From contig CAVPZX010000008.1 of the NCBI GenBank assembly GCA_963710375.1, forward strand, positions 1 to 64,000: a DNA stretch of 64,000 nucleotides. Direction: 5' to 3'. The notes beneath the pieces are model-generated. The model was not told the origin of the DNA. It did not search any database and saw only the letters and a program-made list of their open reading frames with translations. Below are positions 5,455 to 44,982 of the stretch, in pieces. This stretch comes from Nitrospirota bacterium (GTDB lineage Bacteria; Nitrospirota; Thermodesulfovibrionia; Thermodesulfovibrionales; Dissulfurispiraceae). Each line of letters starts with the position of its first letter. The stretch's first letter is position 1. Position numbers and translations under genes: made by a program.

Positions 5455-5462
5455 AATACTGA

Positions 5463-5530
5463 AAGGTTAAGGCTGAGGCTGAGGTTAAGAAAGCATAAAA
5501 TTCTAAACCTTGACCTAAACCTCAACCTTT
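5463..5530. repeat. Inverted hexamer array (AGGTTR)n-spacer-(YAACCT)n
   Basis: aggttaaggctgaggctgaggttaag ... ctaaaccttgacctaaacctcaacct. Confidence 0.85.
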
Positions 5531-5549
5531 ATTTTAAAGGGAGGGAATA

Positions 5550-20937: not shown

Positions 20938-20984
20938 ACGTATAAAAATACTATAACCAAATGAAACAAATCAAGGCAAAAAAA

Positions 20985-21061
20985 AGGTTGAGGTTGAGGT
21001 ACAGGAAAAAGATAACCAATGCTTTTTTGTCTATTCTTAACCTTGACCTTAACCTCTACCT
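20985..21061. repeat. Inverted hexamer array
   Basis: aggttgaggttgaggt ... ttaaccttgaccttaacctctacct. Confidence 0.85.
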
Positions 21062-22378
21062 GCCTTTTCCTGCCACCCTCCTGCTCCACTCGTACGCCTT
21101 TTGCAGTATTGATTCCTCATCTCCTGTGACCAGTGCCCTGCCCAGGATAACCGGCCTGCCGTCAATCATTACATCTTCTATATCCGATGCCATTGCCGCA
21201 TAGACAATAAGTGAATAAAGATCATAGGCCGGCACCAGATGGGGGCGTCGCATGTTCAGGGTGATTATGTCAGCTCGCTTCCCGGGTTGTATGCTCCCGA
21301 TCTGCTCATCAAGACCCAGCGCCCCCGCGCCCCATCGTGTTGCCATAAGCAGGGCGGTTTTCGAGTCTACAACAGTAGGATCGTTTGCTGCCGCCTTGTG
21401 GACTTTTGCGGCCGTCGCCATTTCACTAAGGATATTCATGTCATTGTTGCTCGCTGCGCCGTCGGTGCCCAGAGCGACCCGCACTCCAGCGGCAAGCATT
21501 TTTGTAACAGGAGCAATACCTGCTGCAAGTTTGAGGTTGCTTTCGATGCAGTGAGAAACCGCAACTCCCCTTTGTGCAAGAAGGTCTATTTCCCTGTCAT
21601 CAAGCCACACGCAGTGAGCGGCAAGCAGCCTATCGCTGAGAAGGCCTATGCTTTCCAGGTACTCGACAGGCCTTTTGCCATAGCGGTGCATAATCTCGGA
21701 GACCTCCCAGGCTGTTTCAGACAGATGTATGGTGGTCAGAACTCCCCTCCGGTCTGCCAATTCTTTCACCCGCTCTAATGTTTGAGTGCCGCAGGTATAT
21801 GCAGAATGAGGAGCTACGCAGGGAGTAATCAGGGGATCTCCCTGCCATGAATCGATGAAACGGTCGGCATTGCCGAGATACTCGTCAACAGTATTCGCGG
21901 TCATGGTAGGAAAGTCGAGGACACCCACGCCCAGGAGCGCACGCATGCCGAGCTGCTTAGATGCTGCGGCAGAACTATCACCGAAGAAATACATATCATT
22001 ATAGGTAGTTATTCCCGACTTCAGCATCTCCAGGCAGGCGAGCAGGACGGCATCGTACACGAATTCAGCACTCAGAAGCCTGTTCTCGGCAGGCCATATG
22101 TGTTTTTCGAGCCAGTCCTTCAGCGGAAGATCATCCGCCAACCCTCTGAAATATACCATTGCCGCATGTGTGTGGGTGTTGATAAACCCGGGCAGCACCA
22201 GCCTTCCCTGCCCCCCGATACTATGTGCCGACGAATATTTCTTAAGGATATTCTCTGCAGCGGCAACATCTGCGATCATGCCGCCCTTTACAGCAACAGC
22301 TCCGTTATGAACGATGTCCAGACGGTCGTTCATCGTAAGTATATCCTCTCCGAAAACAATGTAGTCTACTTGTTCCAT
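21056..22378 (-). CDS. mtaD: Metal-dependent amidohydrolase, MTA/SAH deaminase-like
   Basis: PGFINTHTH, APHSAYT, IHLSET, SNLKLAAG, GTDGAASNN. Confidence 0.8.
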   Translation of the reverse strand: MEQVDYIVFGEDILTMNDRLDIVHNGAVAVKGGMIADVAAAENILKKYSSAHSIGGQGRLVLPGFINTHTHAAMVYFRGLADDLPLKDWLEKHIWPAENRLLSAEFVYDAVLLACLEMLKSGITTYNDMYFFGDSSAAASKQLGMRALLGVGVLDFPTMTANTVDEYLGNADRFIDSWQGDPLITPCVAPHSAYTCGTQTLERVKELADRRGVLTTIHLSETAWEVSEIMHRYGKRPVEYLESIGLLSDRLLAAHCVWLDDREIDLLAQRGVAVSHCIESNLKLAAGIAPVTKMLAAGVRVALGTDGAASNNDMNILSEMATAAKVHKAAANDPTVVDSKTALLMATRWGAGALGLDEQIGSIQPGKRADIITLNMRRPHLVPAYDLYSLIVYAAMASDIEDVMIDGRPVILGRALVTGDEESILQKAYEWSRRVAGKGR

Positions 22379-23953: not shown

Positions 23954-25335
23954 AATTAACGATCATCGGTGCTGGACCTGGAGGATACGTAGCTGCCTTA
24001 AAAGCTGCCAGGCTCGGTGCACAGGTAACCGTGATAGAAGACACGGAAGTAGGGGGGACATGTCTCAACCGCGGCTGTATCCCTACCAAATCACTAGTCG
24101 CCTCCGTCGAGGCGCTTCGGACTGCAAAACGACTCAATGAATACGGAATAGATATACAGGGAGAGATACTCCCCAACCTATCCAGGATAATGGAGAGGAA
24201 GAATAAGATCGTTGCGACACAGGTAAAAGGCATCAAATCTCTCTTTAAAAGCTGGGGCGTAACACTTATTGAAGGCAGGGGAACGATTCTCACCCCTGCA
24301 AAAGTTGAAGCGCGGAAAAAAGACGGCCCAACAGAGGTAATTGAGACCGATAAAATAATAATCGCCACCGGCTCCCGCCCCGCAGAATTACCGATGTTCC
24401 ATCTTGATGGTGAACATATCCTTTCAAGCGATCACGCCGTGGCAATCGACTCCATACCAAAAAGTCTGATCGTTATCGGCGCAGGGGTAATCGGCTGTGA
24501 ATTCGCATGCATATTCAGGGAACTCGGTACCGAAATAACAATGGTCGAGATGATGCCGGGGGCCCTTTCTACAGAGGACCACGAAATAGCAGCATTGCTT
24601 CAAAGAGAATTAATAAAGAAAAAAATCAAGTTGTTCTCCGGCGTCAGGGTAGACAGGGTCGAGCGCAACCACAACGGTATTCATGCATACCTCAACAACG
24701 GTGAGGAACTTGTTGCTGAAAAGCTTCTTGTTTCCATAGGAAGGGCATTTAATGTCGAAAATATCGGGCTGGAGGCACTGGGCATCCTGAAAGGCCCTCG
24801 CGGAGAAATAGCGGTAAACGAGAGAATGGAGACCAACATAAGCAGCATCTACGCAATAGGAGACGTTACCGGAGGCCCTCTCCTCGCCCATGTGGCTTCG
24901 AAGGAAGGGCTGGTGGCCGCCTGCAATTGCTGCGGTATAGATACCAGTATGGATTATTCAGTAGTGCCTGCAGGGACATTTACTTCGCCGGAGATAGGAT
25001 CTGTAGGCCTCAGAGAACAAGAGGCAACTGCAAAGGGAATGAATGTTAAAGTGGGACGTTTTCAGTTCAGGATGCTGGGCAAAGCCCATGTCATAGGAGA
25101 GATAACCGGTATGGTCAAGATAATTGCCGACGCAGGTTCAGACAGAGTTTTAGGCGTGCATATTATCGGCCCCCATGCAGCGGAGCTTGTTCATGAAGGA
25201 GCCCTTGCCATGCAGGCCGGCCTGACCGCGGAAGCGATAGCCGGTATGATGCATGCCCACCCCACCCTTGCAGAATGCGTGATGGAAACCGCTGCGGATG
25301 TGTATGGTGAGGCAATACATAAAATGAAAGGTTGA
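23950..25335 (+). CDS. lpdA: Dihydrolipoyl dehydrogenase
   Basis: GAGPGGYVAA, GGTCLNRGCIPTK, HAHPTLAE. Confidence 0.96.
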   Translation: MKLTIIGAGPGGYVAALKAARLGAQVTVIEDTEVGGTCLNRGCIPTKSLVASVEALRTAKRLNEYGIDIQGEILPNLSRIMERKNKIVATQVKGIKSLFKSWGVTLIEGRGTILTPAKVEARKKDGPTEVIETDKIIIATGSRPAELPMFHLDGEHILSSDHAVAIDSIPKSLIVIGAGVIGCEFACIFRELGTEITMVEMMPGALSTEDHEIAALLQRELIKKKIKLFSGVRVDRVERNHNGIHAYLNNGEELVAEKLLVSIGRAFNVENIGLEALGILKGPRGEIAVNERMETNISSIYAIGDVTGGPLLAHVASKEGLVAACNCCGIDTSMDYSVVPAGTFTSPEIGSVGLREQEATAKGMNVKVGRFQFRMLGKAHVIGEITGMVKIIADAGSDRVLGVHIIGPHAAELVHEGALAMQAGLTAEAIAGMMHAHPTLAECVMETAADVYGEAIHKMKG

Positions 25336-25419
25336 GGTTGAGGTTGAGGTTAAGGTTAAGAAACGGCAAAAAAATATTTTGCCTTTGTATTGTCTCAACC
25401 TTAACCTTAGCCTTAACCT
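25329..25419. repeat. Inverted hexamer array
   Basis: (aggttg)3 aggtta aggtta ... ctcaaccttaaccttagccttaacct. Contains the lpdA stop codon. Confidence 0.88.
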
Positions 25420-25443
25420 GATTCTAAATTAGGAGGTTTTTTT

Positions 25444-26736: not shown

Positions 26737-26743
26737 TAAAGAC

Positions 26744-26835
26744 AGGCAGAGGTTTAGGTTGAGGTTAAGATTAAGAAAAGACAACAAATCACGTTTTATC
26801 TTTTACCTTAACCTTGACCTTAACCTCCACCTGCC
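26744..26835. repeat. Inverted hexamer array
   Basis: ggcagaggtttaggttgaggttaag ... accttaaccttgaccttaacctccacctgcc. Confidence 0.85.
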
Positions 26836-26898
26836 GTTGATTTTATGCCATCGTAGTGATAACATAACCCTATATCAGTATATAGAGAGGGTCGGGTT

Positions 26899-38405: not shown

Positions 38406-39458
38406 TCATCTATTTGCTCTTTTCTCCATTTCAGCAAGCCTCATGTCCGCGTCAGCCATCATATTGACCAGGCCCTCAAAGTCGGTCTTTGTTTTCCATC
38501 CCAATTTTGTACAGGCCTTTGAAGCATCCCCAATCAGGAAATCCACCTCGGCAGGCCTGAAATACTTTGGGTCAACCTCAATAACAATTTTGCCTGTTTT
38601 TGAGTCAATCCCCTTTTCATGGACCCCGTTGCCTTTCCATTCCAGCGGCATATCGAGCCTCGCAAAAACCTTTTCAGCGAACTCCCTGACCGAATGGGTC
38701 TCGCCGGTGGCAATAACATAATCATCGGGCTCAAGCTGCTGGAGCATCAGCCACATGGCCTCCACGTAATCACCGGCAAACCCCCAGTCCCTTTTCGCAT
38801 CCAGGTTACCGAGATACAGGCTCGACTGGAGCCCCAACTTTATCCTGGCGGCTGCTCGGGTGATCTTCCTGGTGACAAATGTTTCTCCACGGCGCGGGGA
38901 TTCGTGATTAAAGAGAATTCCGTTACAAGCGAAAAGGCCGTAACTCTCTCTGTAATTGACGGTGATATAATGAGAATATGCCTTTGCGCAGGCGTATGGC
39001 GATCTTGGATGAAATGGGGTCGTTTCCTTCTGTGGTGTTTCAACTACCTTCCCGAACATTTCCGAGGAAGATGCTTGATAGAACTTTGCACTTAATTCAG
39101 CTTCCCTGATTGCCTCTAAAATCCTGGTGGTCCCCAGGGCAACAATTTCACCAGTATACTCCGGCACGTCAAAAGATACCCTTACATGGCTCTGTGCTCC
39201 CAGATTATATATCTCCTGGGGGTGCACATTCCTGAGGATTTTATTTATTGAACTGCCGTCATTGAGGTCGGCGTAGTGGAGGAAGAGTGGCAGGCCCGAT
39301 TCATGGATGTCGTGATACAGGTGATCAATCCTTGCTGTATTGAAGGATGAAGAGCGGCGGATGAGACCGTGTACTTCGTATCCTTTGTCCAGAAGCATTT
39401 CAGTCAGATATGAGCCGTCCTGGCCGGTGATGCCTGTGATCAAGGCACGTCTTTTCAA
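38406..39458 (-). CDS. gmd: GDP-mannose 4,6-dehydratase
   Basis: [38 protein letters not shown]. Confidence 0.97.
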
Positions 39459-39595: not shown

Positions 39596-42007
39596 TCACT
39601 CTTTTTTGAATGTCAGCGCATCCAGCCTGTTGCGTGCATCGAGGTTAGCAGGGTCTATGAGCAGCACTTTTCTATATTCCTCTATTGCCCGGTACGTGAT
39701 CCCGAGCTGCTCATACAATGCTGCGCAGACCAATTGCATTTCCGTGTCATCCGGGAAGTGAACAAGTCCCTTCTGTATAATGTCAAGGGCAGTATCGTAA
39801 TCTTTCTGTCCCCTAAAGAAGTCGGAAATCGCGTAAACATATGATTTACTCGCAGACTTATCACTGTCTATGAAATTAAGGGCTTTGAGATAGGCCTGTT
39901 CAGCCAATGAGTCGTTGCCGGTCCGGTGAAGATACGATCCGAAAGTAATATACGGAAACATCCTTTGCGGCAGTGCCTTTTGTATTTCTTCGTCATTGTA
40001 ACCATTAAGCACCAGAAGCGTTATATACTCACGTGTTTGTTCAGGTACAAGGCTCATCGAGAGCGCTATATTCTTAAGCGCTTCTTCTCTTCTGCCTTGC
40101 GAAATCAGCCATACGGCATATGTCCTGTGTCGCAAAGCATTCCTGCTGTCATACTCGGTTCCCAGACGAAGCAGACGCTCAGCCTTATCGAAATCCGAGC
40201 GGGCTGCATATGCAAACCCGAGGTCCTGCAAATATCCGCCGTTCATACAATCCTGCTCAAGTGCCTTTGTATAATAGCGGAGCGCACCGTCGTTGTTCGA
40301 CAGCAGCACCTCCATTTTACCGACAGCATCCCGGTATCGCGCATCAAAAGGGTCACATAGAGATGCCCAGTAAGCCCTTTTCTTTATCTTGAGCAATTCA
40401 TTCCGAGTATGTTGTTCATCGAGACTGAAGCTCTTAACTCCGGAGAACAAGATTTCAGCAGCCAATGCGCCTATATTTACGGTTGTTATTACTATCAATA
40501 GCACAACAGCTGCTCTGCGCAGTTTTGACAACGGGAAGGGTTGTATTGTCTCGAGATAAGTTGAATTGAGCTTCTCCCGCATCCGGGTATGCGTCGCCGA
40601 GACGAGTAAGCCGCAGAGAAAAAAGAAATAGAGCCCGTTTGAACCTATATGGAGGTTAAAATCAACAACGCTGTGAATCATGATTGCGAGCAATCCGGCA
40701 GCGCTTCCGATAGAGAGATATATAGAATAGGATTCTTTTCGCTGCAGAAAGGTTTTGTATGAACGATAGAGCACGGAGCAGAGGAACCATCCGGCAAGCA
40801 AAAAGGCAATTATACCCCCCTCAGTCAAAAGCTCAATATAGTCGTTTTCGGCATGGTCGGCAGTAAGTTCCCCGGGGAATGTCCGGTATCTTTGATAGCT
40901 GCTGACAAACGTCCCGAACCCTGTTCCGGTCAGAGGGAAATCCCGTATCAAGCGCGTGCTGTCGTTCCATAGTGTAGGCTTGATTTCAGTAATATTACCT
41001 TGGACATCCCTAATGTTCTCAAAACGCTGCACAATAGGTTCCCACCCTAACCAGGTCACAACGAGGAACAAAGTTATAAAGAATGCGATAATAAACATTC
41101 CATTTTTATAGCGCCCCTTTTTCCGGGCAACCATTAAACTGAAAAAGATCATCGAAAGGCAGAGGCTTACTACACCGCCGCGCGACAGGGATAGGAAAAC
41201 CGAGGCCGCAACAAGTATTGAAAAAAATCCAATAAGTATGTGGCGGTCCGTATCTTTACTGGTAAAGATATTCAAAAGACGCTCACGAAACGAACGGTAT
41301 TTGACCTTCGGTTTGAAATAGACAAAAATGCTCAGTATAATGGGTAGGACCATTTCCATGAAACCCGCATAGTGGTTTTTGTTCACAAAAGGACCAAATG
41401 GGTGGCCCCCCTGCGTTAGATTTCTGATCCAGTAAAGTTTACCGTTATAAAAAAGATACTGGAAAATTCCCAGAAGGGCGAGTCCGGATGAGAACGTGAT
41501 GACCACTTTCACTGTTTTCCTGAGAAGCTCTTTTCCGGCAAGCAGCTGCACCGTAACAATATAAAAAGAGAGATATGCTGTAAACCTGAACCATTCCAGC
41601 ATAGTCGCTTTTTTATTGATCGAAAGTGTCATCCAATTCACGGGTTCGACACTCCCTATAGTTTCGGCATAAACTTTATAAGTATTGGGAGAAATAATGT
41701 GCACTATCCCAGCCGGCAGGGGAATAAGCTGTATAATGCAATATGACCAGAGGGCAAACAATGGGATGATCCCCGGGACCTTGTAGAAAAACTGCAGGCC
41801 TTCGTTACGCTCCCTGCACAATAAAAAAAGCGCCCACAGAGAACACCCCTCCATAACGGTCAACGACCATTGCTCCACTGTCCCAAAGGCAAGCGGAGAA
41901 AAGATCAGTAGAAAAATAAAAAATGCGTAACTCTTAGGGCTTGCGAATAAATAACTTGTACCTTGATGCATCTCAGCTTCGGGGATCAGCTTTGCCCGAT
42001 CCTCCAT
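39596..42007 (-). CDS. O-antigen ligase/Wzy_C family membrane protein with C-terminal TPRs; N-terminus MITE-derived
   Basis: FVNKNHYAGF, SLSRGG, GTGFGTF, HAENDY, HSVVDFNLH, TPR tail. Confidence 0.88.
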   Translation of the reverse strand: MEDRAKLIPEAEMHQGTSYLFASPKSYAFFIFLLIFSPLAFGTVEQWSLTVMEGCSLWALFLLCRERNEGLQFFYKVPGIIPLFALWSYCIIQLIPLPAGIVHIISPNTYKVYAETIGSVEPVNWMTLSINKKATMLEWFRFTAYLSFYIVTVQLLAGKELLRKTVKVVITFSSGLALLGIFQYLFYNGKLYWIRNLTQGGHPFGPFVNKNHYAGFMEMVLPIILSIFVYFKPKVKYRSFRERLLNIFTSKDTDRHILIGFFSILVAASVFLSLSRGGVVSLCLSMIFFSLMVARKKGRYKNGMFIIAFFITLFLVVTWLGWEPIVQRFENIRDVQGNITEIKPTLWNDSTRLIRDFPLTGTGFGTFVSSYQRYRTFPGELTADHAENDYIELLTEGGIIAFLLAGWFLCSVLYRSYKTFLQRKESYSIYLSIGSAAGLLAIMIHSVVDFNLHIGSNGLYFFFLCGLLVSATHTRMREKLNSTYLETIQPFPLSKLRRAAVVLLIVITTVNIGALAAEILFSGVKSFSLDEQHTRNELLKIKKRAYWASLCDPFDARYRDAVGKMEVLLSNNDGALRYYTKALEQDCMNGGYLQDLGFAYAARSDFDKAERLLRLGTEYDSRNALRHRTYAVWLISQGRREEALKNIALSMSLVPEQTREYITLLVLNGYNDEEIQKALPQRMFPYITFGSYLHRTGNDSLAEQAYLKALNFIDSDKSASKSYVYAISDFFRGQKDYDTALDIIQKGLVHFPDDTEMQLVCAALYEQLGITYRAIEEYRKVLLIDPANLDARNRLDALTFKKE

Positions 42008-42118
42008 CACAAAATCCTCAACGTAGCTCTGCTACGCCTCCGGTTTTGCTCAATCGGATCAGCCAAAGCTGACCCAAATCTGAGCGCCTTAATGCACAAC
42101 TTATTTATTCGCAAGCCC
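41937..42118. mobile_element. MITE family A copy 5 (182 bp)
   Basis: GGGCTTGCGAATAAATAA...TTATTTATTCGCAAGCCC, flanked by TTA on both sides. Confidence 0.9.
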
Positions 42119-42826
42119 TTAGACGGCATGAAGCTCCAGTCCTGTTATCACTGCTTCGGGATTTGCGACCACCAGTTGCAATGCACGCTCCCTGCCGATG
42201 ATCTCTTCTGCAATCTTCACACCTTTGGAGAGGATAGGAGGCCTCCATCCGCAGGAATGGGCATCAGTTGCGATACACCCTACTACACCCCTGCGTAAGA
42301 GATATAAAGCGCATTCCCTGACATCGGGTCCGAATTCTCCGGTCAGACTTTCCGCGGTGATCTGCACAGTGACGTTAGCATACAGCAGCTCAAACAAGAA
42401 CTCCGGATTTTTTATTACTGATGCATTGCGCTCAGGATGGGTGATAATAGGAAGCAATCCTTGAAGGCTTATATTAAAGAGAATGTCTTTTGCGTTTTGA
42501 GGAATGTGAGTATGCGGAAATTCGATGAGAATGTAGTTAGTTTCACCAATAGTGTAGTCTTTTATCAGTGAGGGATTGAGGAAGGCATTAACATCAGCAC
42601 CAGGGAGGACCTTCACCGGAATGTCCAAAGCTTGAAGATGCCTGTTCAAGTCGGCCACTCCTTTTTTGATAGCCGATACGGGATGCACGGTGTCCTTTAC
42701 ATGCGGGGTCGCTACTATGGTGGTTATCCCGTCTTCAGCGGCAATCCGTGCCATTTGTATTGACTCCCCTATGCCGGATGGTCCGTCGTCAATCCCGGGA
42801 AGTATGTGACAATGTATATCGATCAC
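42119..42826 (-). CDS. PHP-family tyrosine phosphatase (CpsB/CapC)
   Basis: MIDIHCHILPGIDDG, ATPH, HPERN, TDAH. Confidence 0.93.
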   Translation of the reverse strand: MIDIHCHILPGIDDGPSGIGESIQMARIAAEDGITTIVATPHVKDTVHPVSAIKKGVADLNRHLQALDIPVKVLPGADVNAFLNPSLIKDYTIGETNYILIEFPHTHIPQNAKDILFNISLQGLLPIITHPERNASVIKNPEFLFELLYANVTVQITAESLTGEFGPDVRECALYLLRRGVVGCIATDAHSCGWRPPILSKGVKIAEEIIGRERALQLVVANPEAVITGLELHAV

Positions 42827-44982
42827 TGCTTCAGGCTGCTGCTCTCTTCCTGTGACGAATAATAGTAACGATGATAACGCTGATAGTAATAGGCATTTTT
42901 CTTTATATCAAGCGCGTTGATCACAAGTCCGAGTACATGCGCTTTCAGGTCTGTAAGGGATTTTAGCCCCTCTCTCACTTCATCGTACGTCACCTTGCCG
43001 GCGCGCGCGACAATGATAGTGCCGTCAAGCATCTTGCTAAGGATAAGAGCGTCAACTACGGTGAGAACCGGAGGGGAATCGCAGATGATGACATCGTATT
43101 TGCCGGCCACTTCAGTAAGCATCTCATTCATCCTGCTCGAACTAAGGAGTTCTGTGGGATTAGGCGGCAGAGGACCTGAAGTGAGAATACTGAGGTTAGG
43201 AAGCGGTCCCTCCTGGATAATGCTAAAATCCGATGCCCCGGCCAGGTAAGTGGAAAGGCCCTTTGCATTATTCAATCCGAAGATTTTATGGATACGCGGC
43301 TTCCTTAGGTCGGCATCTATCATTAGGACCGTGTATTCAGCCTGTGCAATAGCCATTGCGAGATTAACTGCCGTGGCAGTCTTGCCTTCTTCAGGACTCA
43401 TACTGGTAATAAGGATTGTTTTGGGAGGCTTTTCTGCGGATGAAAGGAGCATGGCCGTCCTTATACCTTTATAGCTCTCGGTAATGATCGAGGACGGCTC
43501 GCTCAGCACAATCCCCTCGATGGGGTTTGCCACAGAGGAATTCAACGATATCAACCCGAAAACAGGGATACCCAACTTTGTCTCCGCCTCTTCAGGAGAT
43601 TTAACCGTATTGTCAAGATAATCTACAAAGAAGGCCATGCCCACGCCTCCTAACAAACCGCCAATGAACCCCAGGAAAATGTTAAACATCTTGCGCGGTT
43701 TGGCAGGCGACTTAGGCGCTTCAGCCTTTTCAACTACCAGAACATTTACCGTCTGGACCCTTTCGGTGATGCTCTCTTCCTTGATTTTTTTCATCAGGGC
43801 CTCATAAAGCTGCCTGTTCGTCTCCAACTCTCTGTTAAGGGTGCTATATTCCACAAATTTTTCATTGGAGATCTGGGCTTCAGACTTCGCCTCCCCCAAA
43901 AACCGGTTGAGCGTTGCCACACTTGACGCTGCCAGATCGTAATCATTCTTTACGGAGTCAATGATCCTTAATATCTCAGTCTCTCTCTTCGCCTTGAGTA
44001 TTTTAAGATCTTCCAGTGCACGGATCATGGCCGGATGCTTACTGCCATATTTCTGAGAGAGTGCATTGATATTCTGCTCACTCAGGAGCACCTGCTGGTT
44101 CAGTGCCTGCAGGAAAGGATCTGAAGCGATGACCGACATGGATTCCGCCTTTTCCAGATTCTTCGATACATCCTTCACCTTGTTGTACAGGGTTTCGAGC
44201 TGCTTCTTTTTCGTCTCAGCCAGTACCAACTGCGTGTTCAACTCATAAAGCTTCTGGGGCACTATTGCAGAAGCCTTGTCTTCGAGTGTTACGATATTTC
44301 GGTTCTTCACATATTCCTGAAGCGCCTTCTCTGAACGGTCCAGCCTGTCGCGTTCGTCCTCGGCTTTTTTAGTCATCCACTCAATAGCATAACGGGTGGA
44401 GCTCGTGTTTAATTCAAGGAGTTCTTCGATGTATGCACGAGCCAACGTGTTAGTAATAGTGCTGGCAAACCCGGGATCGGAAGAAGAAAACCGAATCTCT
44501 ACTATCTTGCTGTTCTTGACCGGCCTGACCTCTATATTGCCGGAGATAGCCTTTGCTATCCTATCCACCTTGGCTTGAGCGGCATCCTCAACGGAAACGG
44601 CTATCTGCTGTTGTGATGAAAAAAGTGTCCTAAACCAATTGGCTATTTCACCGAAAAAAGAAAACCCCGGCCTCTTTGCAGGATCGTACCCTTTATCCAG
44701 ATTGAGCAACTCCACCACTTTACGGGAAACCGCCGTACTCTTTATGAGCTCGTATTGTGTTTCGTAAAATGAAGGATCATATGGAGCAAAAGAAGCATTA
44801 GTCAGGTACCGTGACTCCTCTTTTTCAATAAGTATTTTTGTACTGGCCACATAGATAGACTTAGTTGTGAGAGTCCCGATAGCTACAGTAAGAAAAACAA
44901 TGACAAAAAAGGTAATAACGGTCTGTCTTCTCTTCTGCAAGACTTTAACATAGTCGCGTAAATGAATCTCTTTCTCTTGCAT
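42823..44982 (-). CDS. wzc: Polysaccharide co-polymerase / BY tyrosine autokinase
   Basis: Two TMs, Walker A PEEGKT, DADLRKP, DSPP, Tyr-rich C-terminal tail. Confidence 0.93.
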   Translation of the reverse strand: MQEKEIHLRDYVKVLQKRRQTVITFFVIVFLTVAIGTLTTKSIYVASTKILIEKEESRYLTNASFAPYDPSFYETQYELIKSTAVSRKVVELLNLDKGYDPAKRPGFSFFGEIANWFRTLFSSQQQIAVSVEDAAQAKVDRIAKAISGNIEVRPVKNSKIVEIRFSSSDPGFASTITNTLARAYIEELLELNTSSTRYAIEWMTKKAEDERDRLDRSEKALQEYVKNRNIVTLEDKASAIVPQKLYELNTQLVLAETKKKQLETLYNKVKDVSKNLEKAESMSVIASDPFLQALNQQVLLSEQNINALSQKYGSKHPAMIRALEDLKILKAKRETEILRIIDSVKNDYDLAASSVATLNRFLGEAKSEAQISNEKFVEYSTLNRELETNRQLYEALMKKIKEESITERVQTVNVLVVEKAEAPKSPAKPRKMFNIFLGFIGGLLGGVGMAFFVDYLDNTVKSPEEAETKLGIPVFGLISLNSSVANPIEGIVLSEPSSIITESYKGIRTAMLLSSAEKPPKTILITSMSPEEGKTATAVNLAMAIAQAEYTVLMIDADLRKPRIHKIFGLNNAKGLSTYLAGASDFSIIQEGPLPNLSILTSGPLPPNPTELLSSSRMNEMLTEVAGKYDVIICDSPPVLTVVDALILSKMLDGTIIVARAGKVTYDEVREGLKSLTDLKAHVLGLVINALDIKKNAYYYQRYHRYYYSSQEESSSLKQ

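Follow-up and report, generated by a model that had tools for sequence, protein, structure and literature searches.

How can a gene remain translated after a mobile element has been inserted between its start codon and the rest of its frame? The question is raised by a 64,000-nt stretch of the genome of a Nitrospirota bacterium (contig CAVPZX010000008.1, positions 1 to 64,000; hereafter the window, G000:C8:1-64000, where G000 is the genome to which it belongs). In its exopolysaccharide (EPS) cluster, a MITE (miniature inverted-repeat transposable element) forming a long hairpin splits the first codons of a minus-strand gene that encodes an O-antigen-ligase-like protein with tetratricopeptide repeats (TPRs). 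The codon differences indicate that this ligase-TPR gene is under purifying selection. Translation of the gene would be sustained, in a reading held with moderate confidence, by coupled re-initiation at a stop/start overlap located inside the element.

The split start and its candidate replacement

The element lies between two copies of TAA, and its excision together with one of them restores MPSKSYAF as the start of the ligase. Orthologues locate the start in the same position. The site is empty in the genus genome G010, where the protein begins with MPRKSYAAF and overlaps the phosphatase stop, and the orthologue of G007 begins at the same place with MLRKPKSY. Those of G033 and G050 start a few residues from the first hydrophobic segment and overlap the phosphatase end, and further orthologues agree. 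The old ligase start (ATG 42129) is genuine and was cut off by the MITE insertion three codons into the gene. From this ATG, 40 codons are read to a TGA that overlaps the in-frame ATG 42007, and the old frame has a second stop at 41988-41986. The insert is not a product of sequencing or assembly error, since contigs of run X2 (41628-42296) and run X5 (41702-42900), from two studies, confirm its length and sequence with no other letters and no gaps.

The initial annotation had described the split start, the 40-codon reading and its overlap with the ATG, all of which hold, and had suggested looking for MPSK-like starts in orthologues, such as G010 has. A sequencing error in the two extra nucleotides of the element, which it had named as a refutation, is dispelled by the two contigs. 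The MITE-derived residues, which it put at about 23, would number 24, as counted in codons from ATG 42007 to the element end, with a hybrid last codon. It had overlooked the in-frame GTG 42010, the in-frame consensus ATG 41971, the GAGG preceding ATG 42007 and the second stop of the old frame.

The frame that opens at GTG 42010 and closes at 39596 comprises 804 amino acids and includes ATG 42007; it contains no internal stops. The first in-frame start 3' of the element is found 58 nt further on, beyond the conserved LIFSPLAFG segment, and a full-length ligase therefore needs a start inside the element. Ribosomes leaving the phosphatase would start at the old ATG and, by reading the 40-codon ORF (open reading frame), would melt the hairpin. 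They would then restart at ATG 42007 or GTG 42010, producing a ligase with 24-25 element-derived residues, at a site that would have been mostly ready-made in the subfamily to which the element belongs.

The predicted RNA hairpin of the element reaches -104.4 kcal/mol (z -13.3), and none of 200 shuffled sequences was equally stable. In the full hairpin the predicted cost of opening is 26.9 kcal/mol at GTG 42010, 23.5 at ATG 42007 and 24.3 at ATG 41971, and at ATG 42007 it is 12.4 when the upstream arm is removed. For comparison, four neighbouring native starts require 2-11 kcal/mol and the start of the empty site 7.6, and at the similar restart site of pyrC (see below) the cost is 14.3 in the full structure and 3.6 without the upstream arm. 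The GAGG precedes GTG 42010 by 5 nt and ATG 42007 by 8 nt. In silico, the overlap, the Shine-Dalgarno (SD) site and the occluding structure that characterize coupled genes are all found together. According to the part of PMC6728339 that deals with stop/start overlaps, 13 of 14 tested pairs were coupled.

The same element-borne start (ATG 42007 or GTG 42010) might also be used without coupling, by fresh loading of ribosomes on the GAGG, e.g., after a nuclease cut or before the hairpin folds during transcription. RNases cut the long repeat hairpins of Correia and ERIC elements. For both codons the GAGG pairs with 16S rRNA at -5.6 kcal/mol, which equals the pairing strength of the old start, the predicted fold places the AUG in a 6x6 internal loop, and the passage on bioBF in PMC6728339 describes de novo initiation despite an overlap. 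This explanation is nevertheless considered unlikely, as 23.5-26.9 kcal/mol would be needed to open the intact hairpin, and a weak scan of 41800-42300 found no promoter-like or terminator-like sites (0.3 and 0.4 expected). Still less probable is a start at ATG 41971 near the element end, which would make the TGATG incidental. This ATG belongs to the family consensus, shares the frame of each of the three split genes of G000 and would add only 12 residues. It has, however, no usable SD (-1.3 to -2.0 kcal/mol), and it is located in a stem, 35 nt past the stop of the short ORF. It is retained in the remnant of the element in a sister strain, which is uninformative because the old ATG is in frame there.

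Table 1. Features of the split ligase start and of the adjoining genes (window coordinates).
Feature	Position	Strand	Basis
Hairpin MITE of the +2 subfamily, 182 nt, GGGC...GCCC ends	41937..42118	-	copy alignment, tree, RNA fold
Left TAA target-site copy, stop codon of the phosphatase	42119..42121	-	sequence
Right TAA target-site copy	41934..41936	-	sequence
ORF of 40 codons between the old ligase ATG 42129 and TGA 42009-42007, across the 5' arm and hairpin apex	42007..42129	-	ORF list; orthologue starts in G010 and G007
GAGGA, Shine-Dalgarno-like site, present in the family consensus	42015..42019	-	duplex of -5.6 kcal/mol with the 16S 3' end of G000
GTGATG: GTG 42010 (-4 overlap, inherited), TGA 42009-42007, ATG 42007 (-1 overlap; ATT in L095)	42005..42010	-	copy comparison
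Two extra nucleotides of the subfamily, shifting the exit frame so that the old ATG cannot read through	41982..41983	-	copy comparison; also in the sister remnant
Third in-frame start, consensus ATG, weak SD	41969..41971	-	duplex prediction
O-antigen-ligase-like (Wzy_C) and TPR protein, first 24 codons element-derived	39596..42007	-	PF04932, E 4e-20; TPRs
CpsB/CapC-type phosphatase	42119..42826	-	PF19567, E 1e-48; TAA stop = left target-site copy
Wzc-like chain-length regulator / tyrosine kinase	42823..44982	-	Wzz, GNVR, AAA_31 domains

Selection on the ligase and split starts at other genes

A sister strain (contig L031) encodes a ligase that is 97% identical at the protein level. Over 780 codons the two genes show 43 synonymous and 36 non-synonymous codon differences, with a ratio of 0.25 and no stops. 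The differences were polarised with G007 first and then with the majority of 16 outgroups. Of the non-synonymous changes, 15 fell to the window branch and 16 to the sister, 4 being left unassigned; for the synonymous changes the numbers were 13, 10 and 20. The 15 non-synonymous and 13 synonymous changes of the window branch differ from neutrality (p=0.005), as does the worst case of 19/13 (p=0.019).

The sister strain bears the same insertion, but 128 nt of it have been lost, and the 17 final codons of the element follow the old ATG in frame. The deletion joint is identical in runs X6 and X7, and the two extra nucleotides survive in the remnant. As 49 of the 50 remnant letters are common to the window copy, the insertion is older than the split between the two strains. 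The window lineage has kept the whole element over about 8% synonymous divergence from the sister. The 17 shared element-derived codons show a single difference, which is too little for a test of selection on these codons themselves.

It might be argued that the ligase is silent or nearly so, and that the overlap arose by chance in a gene inactivated not long ago. A hairpin of -104 kcal/mol covers all candidate starts, and the gene seems dispensable in the genus because a full-length orthologue was obtained from 1 of the 9 other genomes with one query, along with one half-length match. Silence is nonetheless very improbable: the insertion predates the sister split, yet the window branch has neither an excess of amino-acid changes nor a stop, and the same layout is kept at the single-copy pyrC gene.

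In pyrC, a +2 copy of the element (G000:C3:387043) occupies the TAA stop of pyrB, and the old ATG opens a 48-codon ORF whose terminal ATGA lies on a frame of 450 amino acids. The product passed TIGR00857, the next in-frame start is residue 62, and a search of G000 for a second type of dihydroorotase found none. Eight of the nine genus orthologues are without the element, start with MEKIN, MKKNN or similar, and overlap the pyrB end. Among the sequencing runs, X5 supports the ATGA, and X6 and X7 contain the empty allele. The third copy of this kind in G000 (G000:C8:139005) splits ribD nine codons in; the native ribD start in eight genomes is ATG in 4, GTG in 3 and TTG in 1.

Altogether, a start is split by 3/3 of the +2 copies of G000 and by 0/23 of the others, as judged from their ORFs (post hoc Fisher test, p=4e-4). 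The +2 form does not always split starts, as L095 and the site shared by L100 and L133 split none. Nor is it the only form able to do so: among 36 other copies from the genus, examined with flanks of about 60 nt, two split prepilin starts in frame. These two are 180-nt copies that form open inserts of 61 codons in the leaders. In-frame remnants have been found in pyrC of G003 and in a prepilin gene of G003 whose G008 orthologue holds a full copy. Six extra letters at the ligase site of G007 and at the ribD site of G005 look like deletion scars.

Some further observations were made at these loci. At L139:1952 (pyrB on G000:C3) one extra G is present in all four runs examined, so that the apparent pyrB frameshift of G000 is likely an assembly error; single-base gaps do occur in this assembly. 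Type II secretion-like pseudopilin genes (L207 in G003:C2, L208 in G008:C2) have been hit twice: two leaders hold full 180-nt copies in frame, and an orthologous site holds a trimmed remnant. Near position 65000 of G000:C7 (L204:999-1772), a prepilin gene (PF07963) with an 11-nt overlap with the upstream stop has an in-frame left-end remnant in its leader.

Several points weigh against coupled re-initiation at the ligase. Even without the 5' arm, ATG 42007 costs 12.4 kcal/mol to open, compared with 3.6 at the pyrC restart. In the assembly the ribD copy is one base short, so that its short ORF terminates some 30 nt ahead of the ATG, and ribD could instead be served by an ATG located 16 nt 3' of the element. 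The whole branch is pooled in the selection test, which would not reveal expression lost recently. The ligase ratio of 0.25 exceeds those of the phosphatase (0.14) and wzc (0.10), though it equals that of the downstream gmd-like gene (0.26). The choice among three in-frame starts and the dependence on the short ORF are inferred from sequence, and one of the five E. coli pairs in the relevant part of PMC6728339 was uncoupled despite its overlap.

The element family, its +2 subfamily and the EPS locus

The genome G000 contains 26 full and 14 partial copies of the element, and matches have been found in 8 of 10 genus genomes. The copy set comprised 65 sequences, namely the 26 full copies of G000 and 39 near-full-length copies from the listed genus matches, partial matches being excluded. 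Identical 3-mers flank 25 of the 65 copies (10 of the 26 in G000), and every one of them is TNA. Target-site duplication, dispersed copies, empty orthologous sites (the G010 ligase; pyrC in runs X6 and X7), terminal arms of about 38 nt that are 84% complementary and a short non-coding core identify the family as a MITE. Rfam gave nothing at gathering level for the element, the sole match being a 17-bit chance hit.

The role of the two extra nucleotides follows from the frames. A usual 180-nt copy and the duplicated triplet add 183 nt, which are open over 61 codons in the phase of the ligase. Such a copy would read straight through, and the +2 form, which stops, must therefore restart. The initial annotation had reversed this role, as it is the +2 that breaks the frame. 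Four combinations of phase and orientation exist, and read-through or a restart close to the stop results only from the forward one with the T at the third codon position, the arrangement observed in all split cases. In the split genes the TNA lies 3-9 codons into the gene and the native start is stranded.

The +2 is common to the window copy and five others at four other sites (C3:387043, C8:139005, L095, L100 and L133), and on the tree, built with the indel zone removed, these six copies need 2 changes versus 5.9 when shuffled. These copies and the tree rule out that the +2 is specific to the window copy. A different +2 is found in C1:107757, which groups with 180-nt copies. The nearest relative of the window copy is L095, with 167 of 182 letters identical, and the two are paired on the tree with 98/90 (rough bootstrap). 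It has the +2, a TGA, an overlapping in-frame GTG (GTGATT) and an open exit frame. Since L095 already has them, the stop, the overlapping GTG and the GAGG were inherited, and only the change from ATT to ATG is new. This change may have improved the restart site. The letters around the +2 differ between the window copy and L095 at four places, and given this difference the +2 of the window copy could be of independent origin.

Among the 65 copies, TGA is present at element positions 110-112 in 12, ATG at positions 112-114 in 2 and TGATG in 1, so that TGATG is not common. As the initial annotation had noted, GCGACC and GCGACT stand in this place in copies 1 and 4, and copy 4 has 180 nt where the window copy has 182 nt. 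Its claim that copy-specific changes had created the site is not supported in that form, as only the step from ATT to ATG is new; the +2, the TGA, the GTG and the SD were inherited, and pyrC has an unmodified ATGA in the same layout.

That annotation had also regarded the element as domesticated and possibly as a regulator, i.e., copy-specific mutations would have been selected to build the site, and the element would tune EPS expression. The occurrence of TGATG in a single copy and the maintenance of the whole element in the window lineage could be cited in favor of such a role. Nevertheless, apart from ATT to ATG nothing at the site separates the window copy from L095, and the ATG is also present in L100, a copy that splits no gene. 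The sister has lost the short ORF, the hairpin and the TGATG, yet its gene is under the same selection, and the same removal has taken place at pyrC in G003 and at prepilin genes. This trimming argues against domestication, which is hardly credible for an element not kept across descendant lineages. From these comparisons the element looks tolerated rather than domesticated, an intermediate that is later resolved by in-frame deletion. No observation spoke for a regulatory role.

Beyond the genus, 68 family genomes yielded no +2 copies past the five known, and 200 other genomes of the order (4 candidates scored in each) yielded only core-like matches, in 2 of them. These core-only matches of 80-86% occur in G134 (L165, L168, L170, L172) and G054 (L166), which belong to other families, and they show no match to the terminal repeats of the MITE. 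They are probably sister families with other ends. The consensus fold shows symmetric GA-rich internal loops (positions 50-51 with 129-130 and 63-68 with 111-116), and two changes common to the window copy and L095 replace one tandem mismatch with Watson-Crick pairs. A lone end of the element at G000:C3:233582 continues in frame into a sensor-like ORF of 833 codons, whose native start seems to lie 3' of that end.

The ligase-TPR gene is a member of a minus-strand EPS cluster with an export protein, the Wzc-like kinase, the phosphatase, the Wzy_C and TPR protein itself and then sugar-pathway genes, which we take from their translations to be gmd and fcl. The operon is a chain of overlaps: the wzc TGA overlaps the phosphatase GTG as GTGA, and the phosphatase end overlaps the old ligase ATG by 11 nt. 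Counts of ligase-TPR orthologues (query 39596-42010) point to a patchy distribution of the locus across the genus. In the window, 105 nt 3' of the ligase stop (39586-39482) and 33 nt at the gmd/fcl junction (38405-38373) are without counterpart in L031. The gmd-like gene (38406-39458) differs from that of the sister by 22 non-synonymous and 24 synonymous codons, and its ratio is high for such an enzyme. A second, unrelated family of short hairpins with tandem 6-base words occupies intergenic sites of the window at 5458-5535, 20979-21067, 25322-25425 and 26738-26838.

Meaning and comparison with known systems

A broader and rather doubtful proposal is that the MITE family comes equipped for survival within gene starts, with selection at the level of the element maintaining its frames as a translational self-rescue system. 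The TNA target would often be a stop codon, lying in overlapped operons within the first codons of the next gene. The 180-nt form would be crossed as an open frame of 61 codons, a case observed only in cleavable prepilin leaders, and the +2 form would bring its own SD and an ATGA or GTGA restart (ligase, pyrC, ribD). The life cycle would comprise insertion, relay, in-frame trimming and a 6-nt scar. If the main reading, coupled re-initiation, is right, the family offers a natural experiment on how a non-coding mobile element can enter overlapped operons and leave the downstream gene alive, single-copy pyrC included. It would also account for some of the variable N-termini and wrongly called starts of these genomes, and would let a Geobacter repeat family with a short-RNA annotation be read as mobile elements. 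The same junctions are available in filled, empty, trimmed and scar forms, and translation-neutral insertion of the type proposed for mycobacterial interspersed repetitive units (MIRUs) is thus testable.

The principle is not new, because its ingredients, i.e., coupling, fusions of repeats with ORFs and MIRUs, are all known. What is new here is a +2 MITE subfamily, belonging to a known repeat family, that carries its own restart site. Apart from the MIRU passage discussed below, a literature search found no paper on MITE-borne restart at split starts, subscription papers being outside its reach.

The origin of the family has been approached from two sides. The central palindrome and the core of about 110 nt were matched by eye to the Geobacter family Gmet_R1001-R1024 (24 copies; PMC2700814, Fig. 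S1), and in R1003, R1015 and R1021 the central ~110 nt correspond, in the same comparison, to the reverse strand of the element. The part of that paper devoted to these repeats describes them as intergenic RNAs of about 113 nt, without mention of terminal repeats, target duplication, mobility or split starts. On the other side, a PF07592 (ISAzo13-family) element in G089 has a left end, following TTA, with 20 of 25 letters like the MITE end, and a second one in G084 has 16 of 25. PF07592 matches occurred in 0 of 10 genus genomes and in 2 of 68 family genomes. The MITE ends are ISAzo13-like, and mobilisation by an ISAzo13 transposase is putative. No convincing match to the MITE end was found beside IS5/IS4-type transposases in the 31 loci inspected (30 among the PF01609 matches, 1 PF13340), and in G000 no autonomous partner was found beside the 13 stray ends inspected of 33.

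Palindromic repeats fused in frame to genes, including their 5' ends, are treated in passages of PMC10969869, PMC3184786 and PMC2996986 on Rickettsia palindromic elements and others. The 180-nt form resembles those elements as there described, since it adds in-frame residues in two prepilin leaders. The window copy differs from such fusions in that it breaks the frame and needs a restart. The open frame that marks elements of this type is interrupted in the window copy by the stop at element position 110, and it is present in the 180-nt copies L125 and L126. With termination-reinitiation, as outlined in sections of PMC6728339 and PMC12548453, the locus shares -1/-4 overlaps, an intragenic SD and a structure that would be melted by upstream translation. 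Unlike the pairs described there, the overlap is brought by a mobile element, and the upstream ORF is without a likely product function.

The closest parallel is provided by the MIRUs. As summarized in PMC12548453, which cites Supply et al. 1997 for this point, MIRUs are inserted at start codons and have an ORF of their own that is coupled to the gene at -4 spacing; the same account proposes that such an insertion is nearly harmless to gene expression. In both cases a mobile repeat occupies a gene start, and its short ORF overlaps the interrupted gene and is coupled to it, putatively so here. In contrast to the start-codon insertion reported for MIRUs, the present element duplicates TNA, which is here an upstream stop inside the first codons. 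Its short ORF begins at the old ATG of the gene, and a new start and 18-25 additional residues come from the element. The native start is thereby stranded, whereas in the MIRU account it is left in use. The host belongs to a different phylum from that of the MIRUs, and the element is of 180-182 nt with long terminal inverted repeats. By analogy, then, the element works like a MIRU but is not one.

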